NCBI GenBank assembly: GCA_910579465.1
Contig: CAJTUB010000007.1
Coordinates: 15,714-79,713, forward strand
From: an uncultured Lachnospiraceae bacterium
Lineage (GTDB): Bacteria > Bacillota > Clostridia > Lachnospirales > Lachnospiraceae
DNA length: 64,000 bases
Direction of reading: 5' to 3'
Shown here: one piece after another, positions 22,032 to 32,762 of the stretch
How the letters are laid out: each line of letters opens with the position of its first letter
How positions within the stretch are numbered: the stretch's first letter is position 1
The notes under the pieces: model-generated
The model's input: the letters and a program-made list of their open reading frames with translations, nothing else
Database searches by the model: none
What the model was told of the DNA's origin: nothing
Position numbers and translations under genes: made by a program

Positions 22032-23452
22032 TGAAACGGGTAAAGCCGGAGGATATTTTAGATGCGGTGGGGATGGTGGACGACAAACTGATAGGCCGGG
22101 CAAGGGAAGGGAAAAAGAAGCCGTTTTTCAAAAGGAGGGCGTTCCTTCCGGCAGTGGCTGCCGTGCTGGTGCTTTCTCTCGGCATCGGTCTGTTCTTTGG
22201 GAGAGGGCGGCTTTTGTTACATGCGTATGCAATCGCGGAGGCGGAGTATCCGACGATGTGTCCGTATCCGGAGAGCCAGTCTTATTCTAAGGAGTTGGAG
22301 GATTGGCTGGACAGCAGGGAGGCACAGCTGTCCGGGTACGATGAAGGCATGGCGCCGGATGGATTTTTTGCGGAGAGTATCCGGGAGTTTCTTTCGGAAA
22401 GACCGGGAGAGAACTGCGCCTATTCCCCGGTTAATGTCTATATGGCGCTCAGTATGCTGGCAGAGCTTACGGATGGAACAAGCCGTGCGCAGATACTGGG
22501 GCTGCTTGGCATACCCGATATCGAAACGCTGCGCGAAAACGCATCGGCGGTCTGGAATGCGTGCTACTGCGACGACGGGTGGATGACCAGCGTGCTTGCC
22601 AATTCCCTGTGGCTGAACCGGGACATCCGCTTTCATAAGGAAACACTGGAGACACTGGCAGAGACTTATTATGCGTCCTCTTATTGCGGCAGAATGGGCT
22701 CCGAAAGCATTGACAAGGCGTTAAGGGAATGGATGAACCAGCAGACCGGCGGACTGCTCCGTGACAGTATTGACGGGCTGCATCTGGACCAGCCAACCTT
22801 GCTTTCCCTGGTTTCCACGGTCTTTTTTCAGGCGGAATGGTGGAGCGGTTTCCCGAAAGAGAAAACGGAGCAGGGAACCTTTTATGCGCCTGCCGGAGAG
22901 GTTACCTGTGATTTTATGGGCCAGAAGGAAGATGATACCTATTACTGGGGAGATACCTTTTCTGCGGTACAGAAGGGGTTACGGGGCGGCTGCAAAATGT
23001 GGTTTATCCTGCCGGATGAGGGTATGACGCCGGAGGAGCTGCTTTCGGAGCCGGAGGCAATGGAGTTTTTGCTTTCCGACGGCGTATGGGAGAACCAGAA
23101 ACGACTTTCGGTTCGGTTTGTCGTGCCGAAGTTTGATATCAGTTCGGAAACGGATCTGATCGAAGGTCTGAAAAAGCTCGGCGTAACGGAAATCTTTGAT
23201 GGCAGGGCGGCAGATTTTTCCCCTCTTATAAGAGATACAGGGGAAGAACGGATTTCCGGTGCGCAGCATGCGGTAAGGGTGCAAATCGATGAGAAGGGCT
23301 GCTCGGCGGCGGCTTATACAAAGCTGGATCTGACGAAGGACGGTATGCCGTTAACAGATAATATTGACTTTATCGTAAACCGGCCGTTTTTGTTTGTCAT
23401 TACTTCGGAGGTGGGACTGCCGTTATTTACCGGCATCGTAAATACGCCGTAG
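22031..23452 (+). CDS. Membrane-anchored serpin (N-terminal anti-sigma-like segment, TM helix and serpin domain)
   Basis: The start overlaps the sigma stop (TAATG). TM helix FLPAVAAVLVLSLGIGLFFG. Serpin motifs are YSPVNVYMALSMLAELT, hinge EKGCSAAAYT and NRPFLFVI. Confidence 0.85.
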   Translation: MKRVKPEDILDAVGMVDDKLIGRAREGKKKPFFKRRAFLPAVAAVLVLSLGIGLFFGRGRLLLHAYAIAEAEYPTMCPYPESQSYSKELEDWLDSREAQLSGYDEGMAPDGFFAESIREFLSERPGENCAYSPVNVYMALSMLAELTDGTSRAQILGLLGIPDIETLRENASAVWNACYCDDGWMTSVLANSLWLNRDIRFHKETLETLAETYYASSYCGRMGSESIDKALREWMNQQTGGLLRDSIDGLHLDQPTLLSLVSTVFFQAEWWSGFPKEKTEQGTFYAPAGEVTCDFMGQKEDDTYYWGDTFSAVQKGLRGGCKMWFILPDEGMTPEELLSEPEAMEFLLSDGVWENQKRLSVRFVVPKFDISSETDLIEGLKKLGVTEIFDGRAADFSPLIRDTGEERISGAQHAVRVQIDEKGCSAAAYTKLDLTKDGMPLTDNIDFIVNRPFLFVITSEVGLPLFTGIVNTP

Positions 23453-23515
23453 CAGGCGCAGCGGTCCTTCAGACTTCCAGAATGTCAGATGCACAAAATG
23501 CGGAGCTCAAGGAGA
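23378..23515 (+). repeat. Left direct repeat (functional 3' end of the serpin gene plus downstream DNA)
   Basis: 23378-23474 aligns without gaps to 32614-32710, with 8 mismatches in 97 nt by hand count. Similarity resumes at the 17-nt box. Confidence 0.85.
23495..23511 (+). repeat. 17-nt box variant (AAAATGCGGAGCTCAAG) at the end of the left direct repeat
   Basis: It is one nt shorter than the consensus, the same variant as at 32763-32779. Confidence 0.6.
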
Positions 23516-23534
23516 TATTATTGGTAGAAATAAA

Positions 23535-23567
23535 GGGGACTGTCACTCAAAGTGTGGTCCCTTTTTA
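23535..23567 (+). terminator. Intrinsic terminator downstream of the serpin gene
   Basis: GGGGACTGTCAC-loop-GTGTGGTCCC followed by TTTTT. Confidence 0.6.
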
Positions 23568-23655
23568 CAAGTGGAGGATTGGTAAATAGAATTGTGTGGT
23601 CAGAGATATTCCATGAATATGAGTAGATATGTTTAAAAATGTAGAAATTTAGGAC

Positions 23656-23684
23656 TTGACATTATTTTACATTTATGTAATAAT
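23656..23684 (+). promoter_or_regulatory. Candidate sigma-A promoter of the island operon
   Basis: TTGACA, a 17-nt spacer, then AATAAT with TG at the extended -10 position. It lies about 85 nt upstream of the rSAM start. Confidence 0.5.
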
Positions 23685-23770
23685 AAGGCAATAAACATTA
23701 TATGCATTTTTGGGAAAGAGTGAGATAGCGCATTTGTATATTGAAACTTGATGTAAAAGGGAGGAGTAAA

Positions 23771-25099
23771 ATGAATTATAAGTATTCAATGTTTAACTAC
23801 TTTTTTACAGTAAATGACCGAAGGTATATATATAATACTATGCAAGGCACGAGAAGCATTTGTGAGATTACAAAAGAACACAACGTAATTTTTGATATAC
23901 TTCAAAGTGAGGATGTTTCAGGGATTAATCCTGAATTTCGTGAAATATTGATTGATAAAGGAATTCTTGTACAAGACGAAATTGATGAAATAAGCAAAAG
24001 AAATGTTTTATGTGCTAAAACAGTAAATGATGGGGTTCTACGTTTGGTAATTCATACGACAAAGCGATGTAACTTTAGGTGTAAATATTGTTGTTTAGAC
24101 TTTGAAGATGAAGACTTATCTATTGAAATGCAAGACAACATCTTTAGGTTTATTAAACATAATATTATAAATTATCAGGTTGTAGATGTTAATTGGTTTG
24201 GTGGAGAACCATTAATGAATGTAGATGCAATTATTAATTTATCATCTAAAATAAAGGATATTTGTAAAAACGTTGGTAAGATATATAAAAGCTCAATAAC
24301 AACTAATGGATACCTTTTATCAGAAAAAGTGGTAAACAGGCTGGTTAATGTCGGAGTTACTATTTTTTTTGTTACTTTGGATGGTTTGCCTGAATATCAT
24401 GATAAATTAAGGGTGTTGACAAATGGGGAGGGTACATATAACAAAATATATCAAAATCTTCTCAATATAAAAAAATTTCATTCCGCTAAGATAAAGGTTA
24501 ATATAAGAACTAATTTCACACGTGATATGATGGGAAATTATCAGAAAATATATAGAAACTTATCGAATGCCTTTGGAGATGACAGGAGATTTGCCTTATA
24601 CTTCAGAAGCGTTGTAGATTCAGGTGGAGAGCGAATTAATCAGATGAAAAACCAGATTTTAAATGGAAGACAAATTAATGAACTTGAAAATAATCTTGCC
24701 AGTATTAATGATGGGACAATAAATTATGATACAAATTATTATTCACTTGAACCAGGCGGATTTATTTGTCCTGCTATGAAATGTGGTAAATATACAATAG
24801 ATACTTGTGGAAAAGTATATAAATGTGATGTATTATCTGAAGAAACGGAACTTGGTTATTTGAATAGTTATGGGAAGATTGTTTATTGCAATTCTTGTGA
24901 AGAAAACTGGGTTGGAATAGCATTTAAATTTTTTGAAAGATGTGAGAATTGTCCGGTTAGTCCACTTTGCTTTAAAGGGGTATGTCCTATGCAAGAATTG
25001 ATAAATGGAGAAAAATTGTGTATTTTAGATTCCAGAGATAATAAATTAGATGGATTACTTGCTATGTTTGTTGCATCAAATAAGATTGAGGTGATTTAA
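23771..25099 (+). CDS. Radical SAM/SPASM-domain peptide-modifying enzyme (candidate RiPP maturase)
   Basis: ATG at 23771 follows AAGGGAGGAG. Motifs are CNFRCKYC (CX3CX2C) and WFGGEPL, plus C-terminal Cys clusters CPAMKC, CGKVYKC and CENCPVSPLCFKGVC. An N-terminal extension of about 90 aa precedes the core. Confidence 0.88.
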   Translation: MNYKYSMFNYFFTVNDRRYIYNTMQGTRSICEITKEHNVIFDILQSEDVSGINPEFREILIDKGILVQDEIDEISKRNVLCAKTVNDGVLRLVIHTTKRCNFRCKYCCLDFEDEDLSIEMQDNIFRFIKHNIINYQVVDVNWFGGEPLMNVDAIINLSSKIKDICKNVGKIYKSSITTNGYLLSEKVVNRLVNVGVTIFFVTLDGLPEYHDKLRVLTNGEGTYNKIYQNLLNIKKFHSAKIKVNIRTNFTRDMMGNYQKIYRNLSNAFGDDRRFALYFRSVVDSGGERINQMKNQILNGRQINELENNLASINDGTINYDTNYYSLEPGGFICPAMKCGKYTIDTCGKVYKCDVLSEETELGYLNSYGKIVYCNSCEENWVGIAFKFFERCENCPVSPLCFKGVCPMQELINGEKLCILDSRDNKLDGLLAMFVASNKIEVI

Positions 25100-25102
25100 T
25101 AA

Positions 25103-25330
25103 GTGGATATAAAACAGATTGTAATTGAGTGCTTAAAGGAATATGGAATTATTATTCAAGATGAAATTGATGAAAATACACCTTTTACTGATTATGGAAT
25201 GGATTCATTGATTTATATGATGCTTATATGTGATTTGGAAGAAAATCTTTCGAAGGAGTTTCTGGATTATTCATTATTAAGTCTGGAGAATATGTCAGTT
25301 AGTAAATTAGTATCTCTTATTGAAAACTGA
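25103..25330 (+). CDS. Acyl/peptidyl carrier protein-like small acidic protein
   Basis: GTG at 25103 follows GAGGTGA, 4 nt after the rSAM stop. 75 aa with FTDYGMDSLIYMMLICDLEE, matching ACP helix II (GxDSL). Confidence 0.75.
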   Translation: MDIKQIVIECLKEYGIIIQDEIDENTPFTDYGMDSLIYMMLICDLEENLSKEFLDYSLLSLENMSVSKLVSLIEN

Positions 25331-25399
25331 ATGGACTGTATTGATATCCTGTAATTGTGGGATATTTTTATGGTTAATTTATATGAGGAGGTGAATATT

Positions 25400-25513
25400 A
25401 TGAGGAAGATTAGTATTAAGAAGAACCAGAAGACAAAAGTTAATAAGGTTGTTTTTGCTGGTCCGAGACCATGTAATGGTTACAAAGATGAATGCACGCC
25501 ATCATCAAAATAA
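25400..25513 (+). CDS. Candidate precursor peptide, 37 aa (MRKISIKKNQKTKVNKVVFAGPRPCNGYKDECTPSSK)
   Basis: This ORF is below the track's size cutoff. GAGGAGGTGA lies 6 nt upstream of the ATG. The peptide is Lys-rich at the N-terminus with two Cys at the C-terminus, and a perfect hairpin follows. Confidence 0.65.
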   Translation: MRKISIKKNQKTKVNKVVFAGPRPCNGYKDECTPSSK

Positions 25514-25562
25514 TTTGTATTGCAGAATCCTTAGAGAATACTTATGTTTTAGGTATGGTGTG

Positions 25563-25602
25563 CAATTCTGCCCTTTGGACTTTCATCCAAAGGGCAGAAT
25601 TG
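25563..25602 (+). terminator. Perfect 17-bp stem-loop after the peptide gene (attenuator or RNA stabiliser; no U tract)
   Basis: CAATTCTGCCCTTTGGA, loop cttcca-sized (cttt ca, 6 nt), then TCCAAAGGGCAGAATTG. It is followed by TCAACAAAT rather than a T run. Confidence 0.55.
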
Positions 25603-25673
25603 TCAACAAATAAAATAAGTCAATTCCGTAATTAATAGTGAAATAGATATGTTGCAGGATTTAGGAGATAGTA

Positions 25674-27392
25674 ATGGGAAATATAGTTCATCTTTTTCAC
25701 CGGGTATGCAGAATCAATCGGTTTTATTTCATTCCATTTTTTGTGACGGAGATAGTTTCTTTGGGAATTAAAGTAATTCAGATTCTTTTTCCTAAAAGGT
25801 TATTTGTCGGATTAAATGAAGGTGCTACCCACGTATTGATTCTGAATATTGTTCTTTATCTCGGGGTTCTCGGAATCTTGAATTGTGCCCGAATTATATC
25901 AGAGCATTATAAAGAAAAGAATAGCTTATTAGTAAAAACTTGCTTAAGTGCAGATTTATATGAAGCAAACTGTGTTTCTAAATTTGCTGATTTTGAGAAG
26001 TACGAGGCACGTAAGAAATTTGAGCTTGCGAAAGAAGGCTTGCAAAAGGGAAACATTGCTATGATGATTGATAATGTAGTAATGTGTTTCTCTAATATTG
26101 TTTTTATCATTTCTGTTTCCTATGTATTCCACTATCTGAGCTGGTGGATTTCAATAGTAATGCTTATTTCGGTGCTGATTAATACGGCATGCGAGTATTT
26201 TCGTGTGAAATATGATTATGATTGCTATGAAAAATACAAAGAAGTAAATATGAAGATGGTGTATTCCAGGGATAAACTGACATGGAAGCAATTTGGAAAA
26301 GAAATTCGTTTATTTGGATTGTACGACTATGTATCGAATATAGCGGAAAAATATATAAATGAACTGTCGGCGATACAGAAAAATAAAAGCAAAAGAATAT
26401 TTTTAGTTTACTTTTTACTCGGATTATATGATATGTTACAACGCTTTTTGCTGATTGCTTATATTGTATGGTTGTGTTCGGTCGGCAGGGTTTCCATAGA
26501 AGATTTTACATCGTTGATTGTTGCTGTAATTGCATGTTTTTCTGCCGTAAACGATAACGCAAAGCTTATTGTAAAACTTGGTGAATCCGTAAAATATGTA
26601 AATTGCTATTTTGAGCTGATGAATGCTTCAATATGCAATAAGTTTGAGATGAAAGAACAGATTACCCGTTTTCAGAAGATAAAAATCAGTAATATGAAAT
26701 TTACATATCCAAACTCGCAGAGTGAAACCTTGAGGGGGATTTCTGTGACATTTGATGCAGGGAAAAAATATGGTATTGTTGGAAAAAATGGTAGCGGAAA
26801 AACCACATTTATTAAGCTTCTTTTAGGTTTATATGAGGTTCCTGAAGGAGTAATAACCTTGGATTGCCGTGATAAAACAGAATATCATTGTGATGAATGG
26901 TATTCAATGTTTTCAGCGGTATTGCAGGACTTCAATGTGTATGCATATACACTGGGAGATAATATTTCCATGTTATCAGAAATGAATAAGGACATTTCTT
27001 TTGATGGATTAGAGATAGATGGCGTTTCTTTGGATGATTATTTATCTGCAGAATACGGAGAGGGACATGACGTTTCTGGCGGGGAAGCGCAAAAAATAGC
27101 AATTATGCGTGTGCTCTTTCATAAGGCACCGGTTGTTATACTTGACGAACCTACGGCTGCATTATCTCCAGACGGGGAAATCAGGTTTTATGAAGAAGTA
27201 AAAACGAGATTTTGTGACAGGACGCTTTTTTTGGTGTCTCACAGGCTGGCAAGTTGTAAACTGTGTGATAATATACTTGTTTTTGACAAAGGACAAATCG
27301 TCGAAAATGGAACCCATGATGATTTGATGAAAAAGAAAGGTTTGTATTATGAGATGTATTCTTCCCAAAAAGATTTGTATGCGTGTAAATGA
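25674..27392 (+). CDS. ABC exporter half-transporter (TMD-NBD)
   Basis: Six predicted N-terminal helices. Walker A GKNGSGKTT, signature VSGGEAQK, Walker B VVILDEPT. No C39 peptidase domain. Confidence 0.88.
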   Translation: MGNIVHLFHRVCRINRFYFIPFFVTEIVSLGIKVIQILFPKRLFVGLNEGATHVLILNIVLYLGVLGILNCARIISEHYKEKNSLLVKTCLSADLYEANCVSKFADFEKYEARKKFELAKEGLQKGNIAMMIDNVVMCFSNIVFIISVSYVFHYLSWWISIVMLISVLINTACEYFRVKYDYDCYEKYKEVNMKMVYSRDKLTWKQFGKEIRLFGLYDYVSNIAEKYINELSAIQKNKSKRIFLVYFLLGLYDMLQRFLLIAYIVWLCSVGRVSIEDFTSLIVAVIACFSAVNDNAKLIVKLGESVKYVNCYFELMNASICNKFEMKEQITRFQKIKISNMKFTYPNSQSETLRGISVTFDAGKKYGIVGKNGSGKTTFIKLLLGLYEVPEGVITLDCRDKTEYHCDEWYSMFSAVLQDFNVYAYTLGDNISMLSEMNKDISFDGLEIDGVSLDDYLSAEYGEGHDVSGGEAQKIAIMRVLFHKAPVVILDEPTAALSPDGEIRFYEEVKTRFCDRTLFLVSHRLASCKLCDNILVFDKGQIVENGTHDDLMKKKGLYYEMYSSQKDLYACK

Positions 27393-27465
27393 TAATTTAA
27401 AGCTTTTAAAAGGTAGTGTATAAACTTTTTGATGTATGGTTATACACTTAATAAGGAGGAAAGGA

Positions 27466-29241
27466 ATGAAAAGGAGAAGATTACTTAGTAGTCTGCTGAA
27501 AGAAAGCATAAGGGTAGCTCCGGGTAATTTTATTGCTATTTCTGTTTCTACTGTTTTATCCGGACTTGCAACTGTGCTTTCTACCTTTTTTCCTGCGTTG
27601 CTCATTGATTGTCTGGTGTCGGCGAAGGGAAATAGGATAATTTTGTTTTATATTCTTGCCTATTCTGTTATCTTATGTCTTGTGGAAATCAGTCATAAGG
27701 CAGCCTCTTTGTATAGTACGGCAACCGGATATAGGGCAAATAACATTGCAACATTGAGAATACAACAAAAGGCTATGCGTATCTCATATGATAGCTGGGA
27801 TTCGCCTGAACATTTTCAAAAAATCAAACAGGCTGTAAATTCTTCCTGGGTATTTCAGACAATAACAGATGCTGTTTGCGGAAGTCTGCTTTCTGCAGTT
27901 ATAATATTGCTGCCAGCAATCTATATTGTTAGTAGAATTCACATATTGCTTTTTGTTTTTTTGTTGCTTCTTATTTTGATAGAAATGCGTATTGAAGAGA
28001 AATTTGATGAAAAGAAGTATGCGATTGAGGATCAGGTTATAGCACTTCAGAAGAAATCTGACTATGACGAGAAAGTGTTAACTGAAATGAAATACGGAAA
28101 AGAAGTCCGGCTTTTTAAGATGAAAGATGGTCTGATTCATCGTTATCTGGCAGACAGGAAAAAAGAAAATAACAGGAGGATAGATCAAGGCAGGGTATCG
28201 GTTCAATTTACTCTTATTTCATTACTTTTTTCTACTATTGAAGCAATCATTGTTTATCTCTTTGCAATTATCAAATACAATTGCGGGGAGGTCAATATTG
28301 CAGACTTTTTTGCATATGTAGGTGCAGTCATGCTTTTGGTTGAAGCTGTCAAGCAAATCGGATGGGCAAAAAACTGGATAAAAGATATATTGAATTACTA
28401 TGTATTTTATTATGAGTTTATGCAGACAAAAGAGGAAGAGAAAGAAAAAAGACTGAAAGAGAAGATTCAGGAAGGAGAAGACTCAGGAGAGGAAGAGCCA
28501 TTACTTCAAATGAATCATGTAAGCTATCAATATGAAAATGCTGTCGGATATGCGCTGGATGATATCTGCTTGAAAATAAACAAGGGAGAAAAGGTTGCCA
28601 TTGTCGGTGAAAATGGAGCCGGAAAATCGACTTTGGTAAAAACAATGCTTCATTTGTATGATAATTATTCGGGAGATATCTGTTATAAGGGAAAGAATAT
28701 CAGAGATATACCTGTAAAAGATTACTACACGAGATTATCGTCGGTATTTCAGGATTATTTTCTTCATGCCTTTTCTATAAGGGAGAATATAACTTTTGAT
28801 AAAGAGACTGACAAGGAAAGACTGCATAAATTATTCTTACAATATGATCTGGTTCATGTTTTAGAACCTTTGGAAAAAGGAATTGATACATGGTATTCCA
28901 AAGAATTGTGTGAAGATGGAATAGAACTGTCAGGAGGAGAGTGCCAAAAACTAGCTACCGTGCGTGGCTTATATAAAGATGCGGATATTCTCGTATTAGA
29001 TGAATCAACTGCGGCTCTTGATCCGATAGCAGAAAAGAAGTATTACGATACTCTTTTTGAAAATGTTGAACAAACAACTATTTTTATTACACATCGAATG
29101 GCAAGTACTAGGAAAGCTAATAAAATTATAGTAATTGACAAAGGAAAGATTGCTGAAACCGGTACATTTGATGAGTTATATTCGAGGCATGAATTGTTTT
29201 ATTCTTTTTTTTCTAAGCAGGCAGAGTTATACGAGGAGTAA
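27466..29241 (+). CDS. ABC exporter half-transporter (TMD-NBD), probable heterodimer partner
   Basis: ATG at 27466 follows AAGGAGGA. Walker A GENGAGKST, signature LSGGECQK, Walker B ILVLDEST. Confidence 0.88.
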   Translation: MKRRRLLSSLLKESIRVAPGNFIAISVSTVLSGLATVLSTFFPALLIDCLVSAKGNRIILFYILAYSVILCLVEISHKAASLYSTATGYRANNIATLRIQQKAMRISYDSWDSPEHFQKIKQAVNSSWVFQTITDAVCGSLLSAVIILLPAIYIVSRIHILLFVFLLLLILIEMRIEEKFDEKKYAIEDQVIALQKKSDYDEKVLTEMKYGKEVRLFKMKDGLIHRYLADRKKENNRRIDQGRVSVQFTLISLLFSTIEAIIVYLFAIIKYNCGEVNIADFFAYVGAVMLLVEAVKQIGWAKNWIKDILNYYVFYYEFMQTKEEEKEKRLKEKIQEGEDSGEEEPLLQMNHVSYQYENAVGYALDDICLKINKGEKVAIVGENGAGKSTLVKTMLHLYDNYSGDICYKGKNIRDIPVKDYYTRLSSVFQDYFLHAFSIRENITFDKETDKERLHKLFLQYDLVHVLEPLEKGIDTWYSKELCEDGIELSGGECQKLATVRGLYKDADILVLDESTAALDPIAEKKYYDTLFENVEQTTIFITHRMASTRKANKIIVIDKGKIAETGTFDELYSRHELFYSFFSKQAELYEE

Positions 29242-29247
29242 AAAATA

Positions 29248-31035
29248 ATGTATTTAGTTGATGTTGTGGTCGTAGATACCGGATTTACCAATCAAACAAA
29301 CAGTAATATTTGCTACAAAATTGAAGGATTGGGTATTGTAAGAAGGGGAAAATCATATTCCATAGTTTCGGATTATTTCGATGAAAAGAATCATGGTACA
29401 GGGGTAGTAGGCATTATATTTCAGCATGTTCCTAATGTGTCGTGTCTGGTTATAAAACTTGCAAATCCAGATGTTATTATTGAAGATATACTGTTTGCGC
29501 TTCAGTATATAATTGATAATGTGTCTTGTAAGTTTGTTAATCTTAGTTTTGGGATTTCTTTAGTTGATGATTATAGAAAAATTGACCAACTTGATGAATT
29601 ATGTAAAAAAATTGATGAAAAAGGAACTGTTATTGTTTCAGCATATAGCAATAATGGTGGAATTACTTATCCTGCTGCGTTTGAATCGGTAATAGGAGTT
29701 ACAACAGGAGAAGAATGTCATCGCATTGATGATATTCGGTATGTGTCACATAATGTAGTTAATTTTTGTGCGAAAGGAAATAATCAGCCAGTATTATCAG
29801 CAGAAGGTAATGGAAGAATTGTCAGAAGTGGCGATAGTTATGCTTGTGCACATGTGACAGGTATATTTTTAACAAAATATCAGCCATTAAAAAAACGGCA
29901 GGATTATTTAAATGATTTTGGGGATAAAAAGGGTTGTAAAGAAAAAGTTATTGATCAAGAGTATTTGATGATGGAAGAATGGAAAAATAAGTTGACAGGG
30001 AAGAAGTGTGCACTTCTATTTTGGGGAAAAGAAATGCATTCAATTGTACGTTTTTCCGAAGAGGCGATAGTTAATTTGATTGCGGTATATGATATGCGGC
30101 AACAGGGCAATATAGGCAGGGATGTATTTGAACTGATCAGAAATGAGAAGCGAGGTATTGTGATTGAAGATTATTTGAAAATGGATTTTTCCAAATTCGA
30201 AGTTCTTGTGATTGGTCATATTATTTCAGAATATTTGAGTGTCAATGTACTTAATTCATTAAAGAAAATTTACGCTCAATGTGTAGAAAATAATATTATA
30301 ATTTATTCTTTTGAGGAGATAGATAAATATATTGATGTTGATAAAAATACTTATTTTTGTCCAACAAGAATTAGAATATTGAGCCCTTATGAGAATTATG
30401 GTAAATTATTCCCTATTTCAACGCCAATTGTAGGAGTATTTGGTACAAGTTCGTCACAAGGTAAATTTTTTATTCAATTATCAATGAGACGCTTATTACG
30501 TAAAAAAGGATATGATGTTGGGTTTTTAGGAACAGAGCCAACATCACTTTTGTTTGGTGCAGATGATTTGTTCTCGTTTGGTTTTCATTCGAATTTGGGA
30601 GAAGATGGGTATTCCACAATTGTTACCTTAAATGAGATGCTTCATAGAATTGATGTGAAGAACAAAGATATAATAATTGTAGGATGCCAATCTGTAATTT
30701 TGCAAAATGTATATGAAAATATAAAAAACTACACAATAAAGCAAATAAATTTTTTGTTGGGAACGTTGCCTGATGTGTTTGTATTATGTGTAAACTATTA
30801 TGATACTACAGAATATGTAAAGAGGACAATAATGTTTTTAGAGTCGATGACAAATAATAAAGTTAAGAGTATTGTAATTTCTCCAGTAAATCGATCTGCG
30901 AAGGATTGCCCGTTAAGTCAAGGTAAGAAAGGGAAATATATATATCAAGTTACAAAGATATGTAATATTCCAGTAATTGATTCGCTAAAGGATAACTGGT
31001 GCAAAAATTTATTATTACAAATTGGTGTAGTTTGA
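29248..31035 (+). CDS. Subtilisin-like S8 peptidase domain fused to a C-terminal domain of about 370 aa and unknown family
   Basis: The catalytic triad motifs are VVVDTGF (Asp), NHGTGVVG (His) and GDSYACAHVTG (Ser). There is no signal peptide or prodomain. The C-terminal part contains VGVFGTSSSQGKFF (P-loop-like). Confidence 0.8.
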   Translation: MYLVDVVVVDTGFTNQTNSNICYKIEGLGIVRRGKSYSIVSDYFDEKNHGTGVVGIIFQHVPNVSCLVIKLANPDVIIEDILFALQYIIDNVSCKFVNLSFGISLVDDYRKIDQLDELCKKIDEKGTVIVSAYSNNGGITYPAAFESVIGVTTGEECHRIDDIRYVSHNVVNFCAKGNNQPVLSAEGNGRIVRSGDSYACAHVTGIFLTKYQPLKKRQDYLNDFGDKKGCKEKVIDQEYLMMEEWKNKLTGKKCALLFWGKEMHSIVRFSEEAIVNLIAVYDMRQQGNIGRDVFELIRNEKRGIVIEDYLKMDFSKFEVLVIGHIISEYLSVNVLNSLKKIYAQCVENNIIIYSFEEIDKYIDVDKNTYFCPTRIRILSPYENYGKLFPISTPIVGVFGTSSSQGKFFIQLSMRRLLRKKGYDVGFLGTEPTSLLFGADDLFSFGFHSNLGEDGYSTIVTLNEMLHRIDVKNKDIIIVGCQSVILQNVYENIKNYTIKQINFLLGTLPDVFVLCVNYYDTTEYVKRTIMFLESMTNNKVKSIVISPVNRSAKDCPLSQGKKGKYIYQVTKICNIPVIDSLKDNWCKNLLLQIGVV

Positions 31036-31108: not shown

Positions 31109-32614
31109 TTGAGAAAAGAAGAAATGATGGAATTGCCGTTATCATCAAAACCAAGTATTATAACGTGCATTCATCAAGCATATCCGTGTGCAATTATTGA
31201 AAGCAAAGAATTGGCGTCGATTATAATTATAGACAAAAATAAAGACAAATGGTGTCAAACTACCCAAAATACAATAGTAGAAGAAAAAAATAATAGAATA
31301 CTAATTTCTCAAAAGGAGGAGATGGATGATTCTGCCACAGTTTTATGGAAGTCTTGTAAGTGTGAAGAAGAAATTGAGATTTACATTGAATATTTTAAAG
31401 AAATGGATAATAATCGATACATGGACATTTTTTTGTTTGATGATTTGCAAGAAGAATGTTTGTTGCAAGATAAAAACTTCGGGATTCGTTGGAATCAATA
31501 TGGATTGTTTGTGAAAAAAGAGATGTATGGATATAATACTAAAATTTTTAGATATATTAAATTTTATCGTAAAAATAATAGTATAAGTTGCTTTGTTTCG
31601 ATGGACGGAAAAGAATGGATTAATTTTACAAATAGAAAGATACCAAAAGAATGGGAAGATTTTGATTTAAAAATAGGGATTCATTTTGATTTTGGGTTTA
31701 ATACATTTTATATTTGGAAAAAAATGAATTTGATTCAATTAGCATATAATACAAGTGATCCATGCAAGGGAATTTTGTTAGATTATTTTGTGATTCCAAG
31801 GAAAAATTATGACAATAGCTACAATTGGTTTTCTAATTATCTTGAAACTATTTATGATACAATATATGAAATATCTGATCTTTTTACTAATATTCATGAG
31901 TATATACAGTGGAATATAAGTCATGGTTATTATGTTAATATTGCATTAGATGAGTTTTTCGTTCCTGAAAGATCAAGTTATAAAAAAGAACATTATCAAC
32001 ACTATAATTTATTTTTTGGATATGATAATTATGCCAAAAAGTATAAAATTATGGGATATGGAAAGCAAAGCAAACCGTTTATAAGCGAATTGTCTTATGA
32101 AGAACTGTCAGAAGAAATAGTTACAAGTGATAAAATAGTTCGTTATAAGTATGTAATTAATAATAATGTTAATATGAAATTTTGTATCTCTATAATAATT
32201 TCCGGGTTAAGAGAGTTTATTATGGGAGAAAATACAAGTTACAAATATGCGAATCTGCTCACTGAAAAGCCGATGATATATGGTATTTCAATTTTTCCAT
32301 ATTTGATTGAGAATGAACAAGGAAGGAAAGAAATTCGTATTGATACTAGAATTTCTTTTTGTATCTTGGAGCATAGTAAGTTAATGAAAGAACGAATTGA
32401 CTATTTATTTAAGAAAAAGTACATTTCTCAGGAACAATATCCAAGATTTGATTTTTTAATAATGGAAATCAATAAATTAGCAGAAGGTTTATTGAAAATA
32501 ATTATAAAAAATAAAGTGAAACCAATATATGATGATAGGATAGATGAAATGTTGAAAAAGTTATATAATGAGTATAATACTTTTTGTAAGGAATTAATAT
32601 CGACGTTATCCTGA
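31109..32614 (+). CDS. Hypothetical protein of about 500 aa, family not recognised
   Basis: AAGGAGGA (31093-31100) precedes an in-frame TTG at 31109 and an ATG at 31124. The ORF is long and AT-rich. It has no catalytic motif I can name. Confidence 0.7.
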   Translation: MRKEEMMELPLSSKPSIITCIHQAYPCAIIESKELASIIIIDKNKDKWCQTTQNTIVEEKNNRILISQKEEMDDSATVLWKSCKCEEEIEIYIEYFKEMDNNRYMDIFLFDDLQEECLLQDKNFGIRWNQYGLFVKKEMYGYNTKIFRYIKFYRKNNSISCFVSMDGKEWINFTNRKIPKEWEDFDLKIGIHFDFGFNTFYIWKKMNLIQLAYNTSDPCKGILLDYFVIPRKNYDNSYNWFSNYLETIYDTIYEISDLFTNIHEYIQWNISHGYYVNIALDEFFVPERSSYKKEHYQHYNLFFGYDNYAKKYKIMGYGKQSKPFISELSYEELSEEIVTSDKIVRYKYVINNNVNMKFCISIIISGLREFIMGENTSYKYANLLTEKPMIYGISIFPYLIENEQGRKEIRIDTRISFCILEHSKLMKERIDYLFKKKYISQEQYPRFDFLIMEINKLAEGLLKIIIKNKVKPIYDDRIDEMLKKLYNEYNTFCKELISTLS

Positions 32615-32688
32615 ACCGGCCGTTTTTGTTTGTCATTACTTCGGAGGTGGGACTGCCGTTATTTATCGGCATTGTAAATACACCGTAG
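32614..32688 (+). pseudogene. Orphan 3' fragment of the serpin gene (last 24 codons plus stop)
   Basis: It translates as NRPFLFVITSEVGLPLFIGIVNTP*. It has 3 nt differences from 23378-23452, one of them non-synonymous (T to I). Confidence 0.85.
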
Positions 32689-32762
32689 CAGGCACAGCAC
32701 TCCTTTGGACAAATGCAAAATAAGATGCGATACCGCCGGCGGAACTTTTTTCGGGTGACTCA

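Follow-up and report, generated by a model that had tools for sequence, protein, structure and literature searches.

The carrier protein gene described here occupies positions 25103..25330 (+ strand) of a 64,000-nucleotide stretch of DNA, called the window below, from an uncultured Lachnospiraceae bacterium (assembly GCA_910579465.1, contig CAJTUB010000007.1). It lies in a small low-GC island, directly after the gene for a radical S-adenosylmethionine (rSAM) peptide maturase. Computation shows that it encodes a dedicated stand-alone protein of the acyl carrier protein (ACP) fold, with Ser35 at the modelled N-terminus of helix II, and that this Ser is invariant in the family. The carrier is a core part of a recurrent rSAM cassette for peptides made by ribosomes and modified after translation (RiPPs), in which it co-occurs strictly with a fusion of an S8 subtilase to a DUF1611 P-loop domain (S8::DUF1611) and frequently with a protein resembling BtrH. 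Carrier proteins are a hallmark of assembly-line chemistry, that of nonribosomal peptide synthetases (NRPS), polyketide synthases (PKS) and fatty acid synthases (FAS), and RiPP pathways normally do without them. We lean, with limited confidence, towards the reading in which the AcpS of the host makes a holo carrier, from which the cross-linked peptide receives an acyl or aminoacyl group; ribosomal and assembly-line chemistry would then meet in one product, a rare mix.

Translated from its GTG start, the carrier open reading frame (ORF) gives a 75-residue protein, MDIKQIVIECLKEYGIIIQDEIDENTPFTDYGMDSLIYMMLICDLEENLSKEFLDYSLLSLENMSVSKLVSLIEN. The motif FTDYGMDSLIYMMLICDLEE spans residues 28-47, and Ser35 is encoded by TCA at 25205-25207. 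The protein is strongly acidic, with a computed isoelectric point (pI) of 4.05 and a computed charge of about -12.5 at pH 7. The rSAM gene ends in the stop codon TAA at 25097-25099, which is followed by three bases (TAA) and then by the carrier GTG at 25103. The N-terminus 'MDI' is common to carrier homologues with ATG starts (L002, L010 and P0002 in our numbering), and for this reason the GTG start appears well placed. An earlier sequence-only reading of the window had proposed a 75-residue acidic carrier ORF with a GTG start and GAGGTGA upstream, and the gene exists as it was described there. A 1:1 stoichiometry of carrier and maturase, also proposed, is what the gene spacing alone would suggest.

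Carrier fold and family. The protein matches the Pfam family PP-binding (PF00550) over residues 18-71 at 30.2 bits (E 5.5e-7), above the gathering score of 20.8, and a genome-wide PP-binding scan recovered it at 29.2 bits. The closest solved sequences are ACPs from PKS and FAS systems, with whose attachment Ser Ser35 aligns. An exhaustive HMMER search of 1.8 billion representatives returned mostly PKS ACP domains, together with about 12 stand-alone carrier relatives of 75-95 aa; a word-index protein search found only the carrier itself and one 95% copy. An AlphaFold2 model, built on a 14-sequence family alignment, has a mean confidence (pLDDT) of 88.9 and a pTM of 0.78, and predicts helices at residues 3-12, 35-49, 55-58 and 66-74, so that Ser35 is the first residue of helix II. 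When this model was compared with the PDB using Foldseek, the top 50 matches were all ACPs, with TM scores up to 0.79 and query-normalized scores (TMq) mostly of 0.6-0.79.

Fourteen proteins, taken from loci whose rSAM genes are syntenic, make up the family alignment, and their identity to the window protein goes as low as 17%. Only S35, E46 and L58 stand in invariant columns, with D34 conserved to at least 90%, which makes the attachment motif the best-conserved feature of the family. The Ser is also kept in seven further stand-alone relatives from the search of representatives. The sequence-only reading had proposed an ACP or peptidyl carrier protein (PCP) fold, had suggested looking for four helices with the Ser at the start of the second, and would have given up the idea had the Ser varied among homologues. 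The PP-binding match, the model and the fold matches now agree on the fold, as a prediction; helix II of the model begins at Ser35, and the Ser is present in 14 of 14 family members and in the seven relatives.

Two other identities for the gene were considered and rejected. A chance ORF is ruled out by the PP-binding score together with syntenic homologues in about 13 other distinct loci. A housekeeping AcpP is ruled out as well, the genome having two other, better-scoring ACPs elsewhere.

Recurrence of the cassette. The tie between carrier and rSAM genes, proposed earlier from this one locus, proved to be tight in every close relative examined, where a homologous carrier gene lies beside or near the rSAM gene (30-47% identity, about 13 distinct loci). 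Six rSAM relatives (33-47% identity) were looked up individually, and all six have a PP-binding gene directly downstream. After the carrier, these loci continue with a short Lys-rich, Cys-bearing ORF, one or more ATP-binding cassette (ABC) exporter genes, and an S8/DUF1611 protein. A wider scan covered 80 further loci on contigs from one genome per species, with rSAM identities of 24-34%, and the carrier was sought with a hidden Markov model (HMM) of the family. It was found only in L023-L026, L035, L039 and L042. Wherever the contig is long enough, the carrier-positive loci also encode the S8::DUF1611 fusion, with a reduced Treponema locus (L026) as the sole exception, and the fusion is absent from all of the approximately 67 scanned loci that lack a carrier. 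Members of the BtrH-like family occur in the window, L002, L004, L007/8, L010 and L023-L026, and the BtrH_N protein encoded in L009, which is Pfam-positive, can be aligned with them at the His motif. Since none of its rSAM proteins reaches an NCBIfam cut-off, the cassette family has no name.

Some loci show departures from this arrangement. The reduced cassette of L026 (L026:10606-11808, from a metagenome-assembled genome of Treponema sp., JAISAE010000098.1) comprises three genes (rSAM, carrier and BtrH-like); the 5 kb downstream contain neither an S8::DUF1611 nor an ABC gene. Its BtrH-like ORF has a 60-residue N-terminal extension, MKVALYKPE..., resembling the precursor leader of L010 (..KKVALYHSEG..); the extension may represent a fusion of precursor and enzyme, or else a small ORF that was not called. 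In L007:8591-10398 the S8::DUF1611 gene is split into ORFs of 166 and 424 aa, and in the near-identical L008:8591-10399 it is intact (602 aa); the split is a frameshift or an assembly error.

Maturase. The rSAM protein matches PF04055 at 65.6 bits. The cysteines C110, C114 and C117 of its CxxxCxxC motif and seven C-terminal cysteines are invariant in 26 homologues, which is the pattern of rSAM/SPASM enzymes. Its best NCBIfam match, TIGR04463, scores 184.6 bits against a cut-off of 525 (other matches are to CefB, Clo7bot, PapB and QhpD) and, because this is so far below the cut-off, the enzyme is assigned to no named family. Curated NCBIfam cut-offs were reached by none of the island proteins and by none of ten rSAM relatives. 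Pfam gave nothing above noise for a RiPP recognition element (RRE) or PqqD-like domain in the rSAM N-terminus. Of the two possible start codons (Table 1), ATG 23771 is more likely because a 96%-identical homologue is called from the equivalent ATG (442 aa, MNYKYSMFNYF...).

Candidate partners for loading. Pfam and NCBIfam scans of the seven island proteins found no phosphopantetheinyl transferase (PPTase), adenylation, ketosynthase or condensation domain, and the gene tables of seven related loci contain none of these and no acyl-ACP ligase domain. The earlier statement that the island has no loading enzymes thus stands for canonical ones. It does not extend to candidate partners, two of which are encoded: the DUF1611 P-loop domain and the BtrH-like protein.

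The S8 part of the fusion matches QhpE at 86 bits (E 2.2e-24) and Peptidase_S8 at 35 bits, and is without signal peptide or prodomain. The C-terminal half matches DUF1611 (PF07755; residues ~390-520) at 40-42 bits, above the cut-off of 25, and TIGR04066 at 72-73 bits, where the cut-off is 200; it also matches PDB entry 2G0T (E 5.5e-4). A Walker-A-like GTSSSQGK occupies residues 399-406, and the pattern GT(S/G)(S/P)x(Q/A)GK is found in 12 of 12 members of the window family. The NCBIfam model 'N-acetyltransferase DgcN' gives a weak match of 12 bits to the P-loop domain. We take DgcN to be a DUF1611 protein that uses acetyl-CoA; the literature on DgcN confirmed it as a gene of a D-Glu pathway and did not confirm the fold link to DUF1611. 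No functional literature on DUF1611 was found.

Only one PF01648 PPTase is encoded in the genome of the window, namely an AcpS domain joined to Nnr (YjeF) on contig C9. The genome has three PP-binding proteins in all, of which the island carrier is one, and no NRPS or PKS. Modification of the carrier in trans by this AcpS would be possible. PPTase searches in five other host genomes gave 0-2 matches each and were uninformative. The AcpS-Nnr fusion itself (genome G000, contig C9, L001:1462-3282) has the NAD(P)HX epimerase/dehydratase-like part in the same frame, in an open frame of >600 aa.

The BtrH-like family carries an H-x5-G-x-D motif in which His310 and Gly316 never vary and Asp318 reaches at least 90% conservation. 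BtrH_N (PF14399) matches three of its 10 members, the best being L009:6811, whose 29.9 bits just exceed the gathering score of 29.7 (L010 has E 0.09); L009:6811 also matches Peptidase_C39_2. The 513-aa protein of the window gives only a weak match to DUF1839, a papain-clan family, at E 0.04, and does not reach the BtrH_N gathering score. An N-terminal Cys is found in 7 of the 10 members. A profile search of the PDB with the family gave noise only (BRIC1, E 0.46), without a sequence-level match to a solved structure. BtrH, CtaG and AsbE act as acyl transferases that depend on carrier proteins (PMC12865890, PMC10318531), and the papain-like enzymes CtaG, AsbE, BtrH and CcbD use acyl donors tethered to carrier proteins (PMC12865890, PMC12945683, PMC10318531). 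Residues ~66-206 of the window protein form a beta-rich insert between the N-terminal segment and the His motif, common only to L025; in a low-confidence model its fold matches are galectin and the C-terminal beta-sandwiches of GH43 proteins. The BtrH_N protein of L009 has a C-terminal F5/8 type C domain instead of this insert.

Proposed pathway. If the carrier is loaded as we favour, the AcpS-Nnr fusion, the only detectable PPTase of the host, would phosphopantetheinylate Ser35 in trans. The carrier thiol would then be charged with a small acyl or aminoacyl unit, with the DUF1611 P-loop domain as the one conserved candidate for the loading. The rSAM enzyme would cross-link the core peptide, most likely through thioethers of the Cys-to-Asp/Glu type, by analogy with QhpD and the ranthipeptide enzymes, and the S8 domain would cut off the leader. 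The BtrH-like enzyme would transfer the carrier-bound group to an amine of the peptide, either the new N-terminus or a Lys, and the ABC pair would export the product.

Several findings weigh against this pathway. No PPTase, adenylating enzyme, ATP-grasp or acyl-ACP ligase is encoded in any cassette examined. Compared with FAS ACPs, helix II of the carrier is more hydrophobic and less acidic, and by sequence the carrier is closest to PKS ACP domains, so that acceptance by an AcpS-type enzyme is uncertain. The DgcN link of the DUF1611 domain comes from an NCBIfam name and the 12-bit match, and the role of the domain here is a predicted one. For the window BtrH-like protein there is no Pfam match above threshold. 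The putative catalytic Cys of its family is Tyr in L025 and L008, the nearest relatives of the window protein, and Cys32 of the window protein is one register off. The AlphaFold2 model of the 513-aa protein is poor (pLDDT 53), with its C-terminal helical part at 70-92 and its N-terminal part not confident, and its top PDB fold match, CcbD (7YN2, E 7.8e-3), has a TM score of only 0.19-0.26 and is a weak lead. Finally, the homologous carrier of the CcpM cassette, a system compared below, would have to work without the Ser, pointing to a non-pantetheinylated role in the carrier lineage.

The sequence-only reading had set a host-loaded carrier beside a non-pantetheinylated scaffold, and both remain live hypotheses. 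As a scaffold, the carrier would be an adaptor or chaperone whose acidic ACP fold serves only to bind other proteins or the leader; it might, for instance, present the very basic Lys-rich leader to the rSAM enzyme, or bridge the rSAM enzyme and S8::DUF1611, and the Ser would be only a helix N-cap. Such a role fits the CcpM loci, where the TIGR04069 proteins are Ser-less in 7 of 7 and are still retained with rSAM, TIGR04066 and subtilase genes, and it fits the lack of a loading enzyme or PPTase in the cassettes. The adjoining carrier and rSAM genes, with possible translational coupling, and the failure of Pfam to detect an RRE/PqqD-like domain in the rSAM N-terminus also speak for it. The charges of carrier and leader (about -12.5 and +6.5) are complementary, a point that does not discriminate since all ACPs are acidic. 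The behaviour of the Ser argues the other way: across sequences down to 17% identity Ser35 is never exchanged for the helix-capping residues Thr, Asp or Asn, and the Ser covaries with an intact P-loop and a BtrH-like gene. We regard the adaptor as rather unlikely, and as the most serious of the alternatives.

The carrier might instead tether a small molecule or amino acid that the rSAM enzyme itself modifies, as in ACP-dependent rSAM polyketide chemistry, before its attachment to the peptide; the rSAM enzyme would then not primarily be a cross-linker. Two observations would suit this idea: in nearly all loci the rSAM and carrier genes lie side by side, and in the Treponema locus L026 protease and exporter are missing, so that only the rSAM, carrier and BtrH-like genes are left. 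We think it improbable, given that the rSAM enzyme is of the SPASM peptide-maturase type, with RiPP maturases as its best matches, and that a conserved Cys-bearing precursor is encoded downstream of the carrier gene.

We consider it highly improbable that the carrier gene is a relic of evolution without a function in the island today, since its frame is intact and has a good Shine-Dalgarno sequence, synteny and motif are kept across about 13 distinct loci with rSAM identities down to 30%, and the neighbouring genes are under purifying selection (dN/dS 0.12-0.21 against the sister island L108); horizontal acquisition and low GC of the island could be cited in favour of a relic, as could the dN/dS of 0.46 between the carrier gene and its 97%-identical copy in L108, a ratio that is uninformative because it is based on only 6 changes (2 synonymous, 4 non-synonymous).

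Returning to the host-loaded carrier, a more specific form of it can be put forward tentatively. The product would be a hybrid: an rSAM-cross-linked peptide, acylated or aminoacylated from a carrier that is charged by the DUF1611 P-loop domain and discharged by the BtrH/CtaG-like ligase, without any adenylation, condensation, ketosynthase or GCN5-related N-acetyltransferase (GNAT) enzyme. The Ser-less CcpM system would then have descended or branched off from this chemistry and degenerated, its carrier and P-loop proteins persisting as scaffolds only.

If the carrier, the protease-P-loop fusion and the papain-like ligase homologue do work together, they would constitute a compact new route for decorating ribosomal peptides, and a function would be assigned to two widespread unknowns, DUF1611/TIGR04066 and TIGR04069. 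The contrast between loci with Ser, P-loop and BtrH-like gene and loci without all three provides a direct experimental handle. The cassette was found mainly in gut and rumen Clostridia metagenomes, and its product may therefore be an unrecognised peptide of the microbiome.

Features of the island are collected in Table 1.

Table 1. Carrier gene, neighbouring genes and expression signals in the island (window coordinates)
Feature	Coordinates	Strand	Remarks
Promoter-like site TTGACA-17-AATAAT with TG	23656..23684	+	11/12 matches, best in 23400-25800; consensus match only
rSAM/SPASM peptide maturase	23741..25099	+	ORF from TTG 23741 (452 aa); likelier start ATG 23771 (442 aa)
Shine-Dalgarno GAGGTGA	25088..25094	+	within 3' end of rSAM gene; 8 nt before carrier GTG
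Carrier protein, stand-alone ACP/PCP fold (predicted), 75 aa	25103..25330	+	Ser35 codon 25205-25207
Precursor peptide, 37 aa, MRKISIKKNQKTKVNKVVFAGPRPCNGYKDECTPSSK	25400..25513	+	Lys-rich leader, core PRPCNGYKDECTPSSK
ABC exporter permease/ATPase, subunit 1	25674..27392	+	ABC_tran 85 bits, MsbA/CydC-like; conserved in related loci
ABC exporter permease/ATPase, subunit 2	27436..29241	+	ABC_tran 94.5 bits
S8 subtilase (QhpE-like) fused to DUF1611/TIGR04066-like P-loop domain	29248..31035	+	Walker-A-like GTSSSQGK at 30442-30465
BtrH/CtaG-like papain-clan candidate transferase, 513 aa	31073..32614	+	inserted beta-sandwich; invariant His310 codon 32000-32002

The island measures 9.1 kb and has a GC content of 29-37%, against 46-55% in the flanks; it is horizontally acquired. 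In another assembly (L108), an island of 96-97% identity lies at the corresponding SulP-sigma-serpin / SNF2 site. No terminator-like site was found between the promoter-like site and the ABC genes. The precursor leader has a computed charge of about +6.5. The precursor peptide is identical in L108, its segment RPCNG(Y/H)(K/R)DECTP is kept in L002 and L004, and L007, L009 and L010 have short Lys-rich, Cys-bearing ORFs at the same position. At the island borders the 3' end of the serpin gene is duplicated (window 23314-23474 and 32502-32710), and between the two copies GC drops from ~51-54% to ~29-37%. Minus-strand ORFs at both ends of the island share MP(V/I)NNGSPTSEVMTNKNGRF. No integrase was seen at the island.

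Comparison with known systems. No paper was found that characterises a carrier protein in an rSAM RiPP cluster, and the flm/ohk paper does not mention carrier proteins. The sequence-only reading had called such a protein unusual for rSAM-type RiPP pathways. This holds against the characterised RiPP classes, but a carrier-like protein had already been catalogued as TIGR04069, in the CcpM / CLI_3235 'Cys-rich peptide' cassette, which is described in silico only, from Roseburia (PMC4573289) and Paenibacillus SacP23 (PMC10731318). That cassette comprises a TIGR04065 precursor, the TIGR04068 rSAM enzyme CcpM, TIGR04066, the TIGR04069 'acyl carrier-related protein', a subtilase and an ABC exporter.

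The window and CcpM cassettes appear to have the same kinds of component: an rSAM/SPASM enzyme, a small ACP-fold protein, a DUF1611-like protein, an S8 protease, an ABC exporter and a Cys-bearing precursor. Window proteins match TIGR04068 (89.7 bits, cut-off 500) and, as given above, TIGR04066, both far below the cut-offs. By hhalign, homology between the two carrier families spans helices II-IV (93.7% probability, E 2e-7). TIGR04069 itself (cut-off 70 bits) gave no hmmscan match to the window carrier even at E values up to 10; in a scan of the whole genome its only match was another ACP, on contig C5, and a word-index search with its seed returned the query only.

The differences were assessed in seven CcpM-type loci (within L109-L120). 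All seven have Pro or Ala at the carrier Ser column, whereas the window family keeps DS(L/I); helix II starts with G-L-x-(P/A)-R-D-L-L in TIGR04069 proteins and with G-M-D-S-L-I-Y in the window. Two TIGR04069 proteins that were tested fail Pfam PP-binding, which the window carrier passes. The TIGR04066 partners have H/N-K for G-K in 7 of 7, giving a degenerate Walker A, (G/S)xxxxx(H/N)K, where the motif of the window family is intact. A BtrH-like gene, present in the window, was not found within ~10 kb in any of the seven. The S8 and DUF1611-like parts are separate in CcpM and fused in the window, and the carrier gene follows TIGR04066 in the former and the rSAM gene in the latter. On sequence grounds, TIGR04069 and the CcpM TIGR04066 proteins look like catalytically disabled versions of the window-family proteins. 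The window family combines Ser, intact P-loop and BtrH-like gene, and CcpM lacks all three; this covariation is only suggestive, because the comparison is of 12 with 7 loci that are not phylogenetically independent.

Papain-like ligases that work with stand-alone carriers are CtaG with CtaE/CtaH (closthioamide), BtrH with BtrI (butirosin) and AsbE with AsbD (petrobactin) (PMC12865890), and CcbD/LmbD with CcbZ/LmbN (PMC12945683). The window may resemble them in combining a stand-alone carrier with a protein of about 350 aa whose N-terminal region bears a Cys, which has a His...G-x-D motif and whose C-terminal half is predicted to be rich in helices, in the weak but recurrent Pfam matches to BtrH_N and the papain clan, and in the top fold match to CcbD. 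The known systems are non-ribosomal and have dedicated loaders (an ANL ligase or ATP-grasp enzyme), whereas the window has a ribosomal precursor and an rSAM enzyme and no such loader, and the catalytic Cys is not kept in its subgroup.

A second likeness is to Qhp, the maturation system of quinohemoprotein amine dehydrogenase. QhpE is the best NCBIfam match of the S8 domain, and the rSAM enzyme matches QhpD at 75.7 bits, both below the cut-offs. The logic is alike, with cross-linking in the cytoplasm, leader removal by a subtilase without prodomain, and then export. The core of the window peptide, C-x4-DEC, resembles the targets of Cys-to-Asp/Glu thioether formation in QhpC. Qhp differs in having no carrier protein, DUF1611 domain or BtrH-like gene, and it yields a subunit of an enzyme instead of a small peptide for export.

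Acylation of a ribosomal peptide from a carrier protein has a precedent in the lipolanthines (microvionin, goadvionin). In these PKS/FAS-RiPP hybrids a GNAT enzyme puts an acyl chain from an ACP on the peptide N-terminus; RiPP hybrids are described as rare (PMC8842026). Lipolanthine clusters have full FAS/PKS machinery and the GNAT, and are lanthipeptide-based, in contrast to the window with its single carrier, its rSAM maturase and no ketosynthase, acyltransferase or GNAT. What is new here relative to these systems is a bona fide PP-binding protein with an invariant Ser, outside every curated model and with non-canonical partner candidates.

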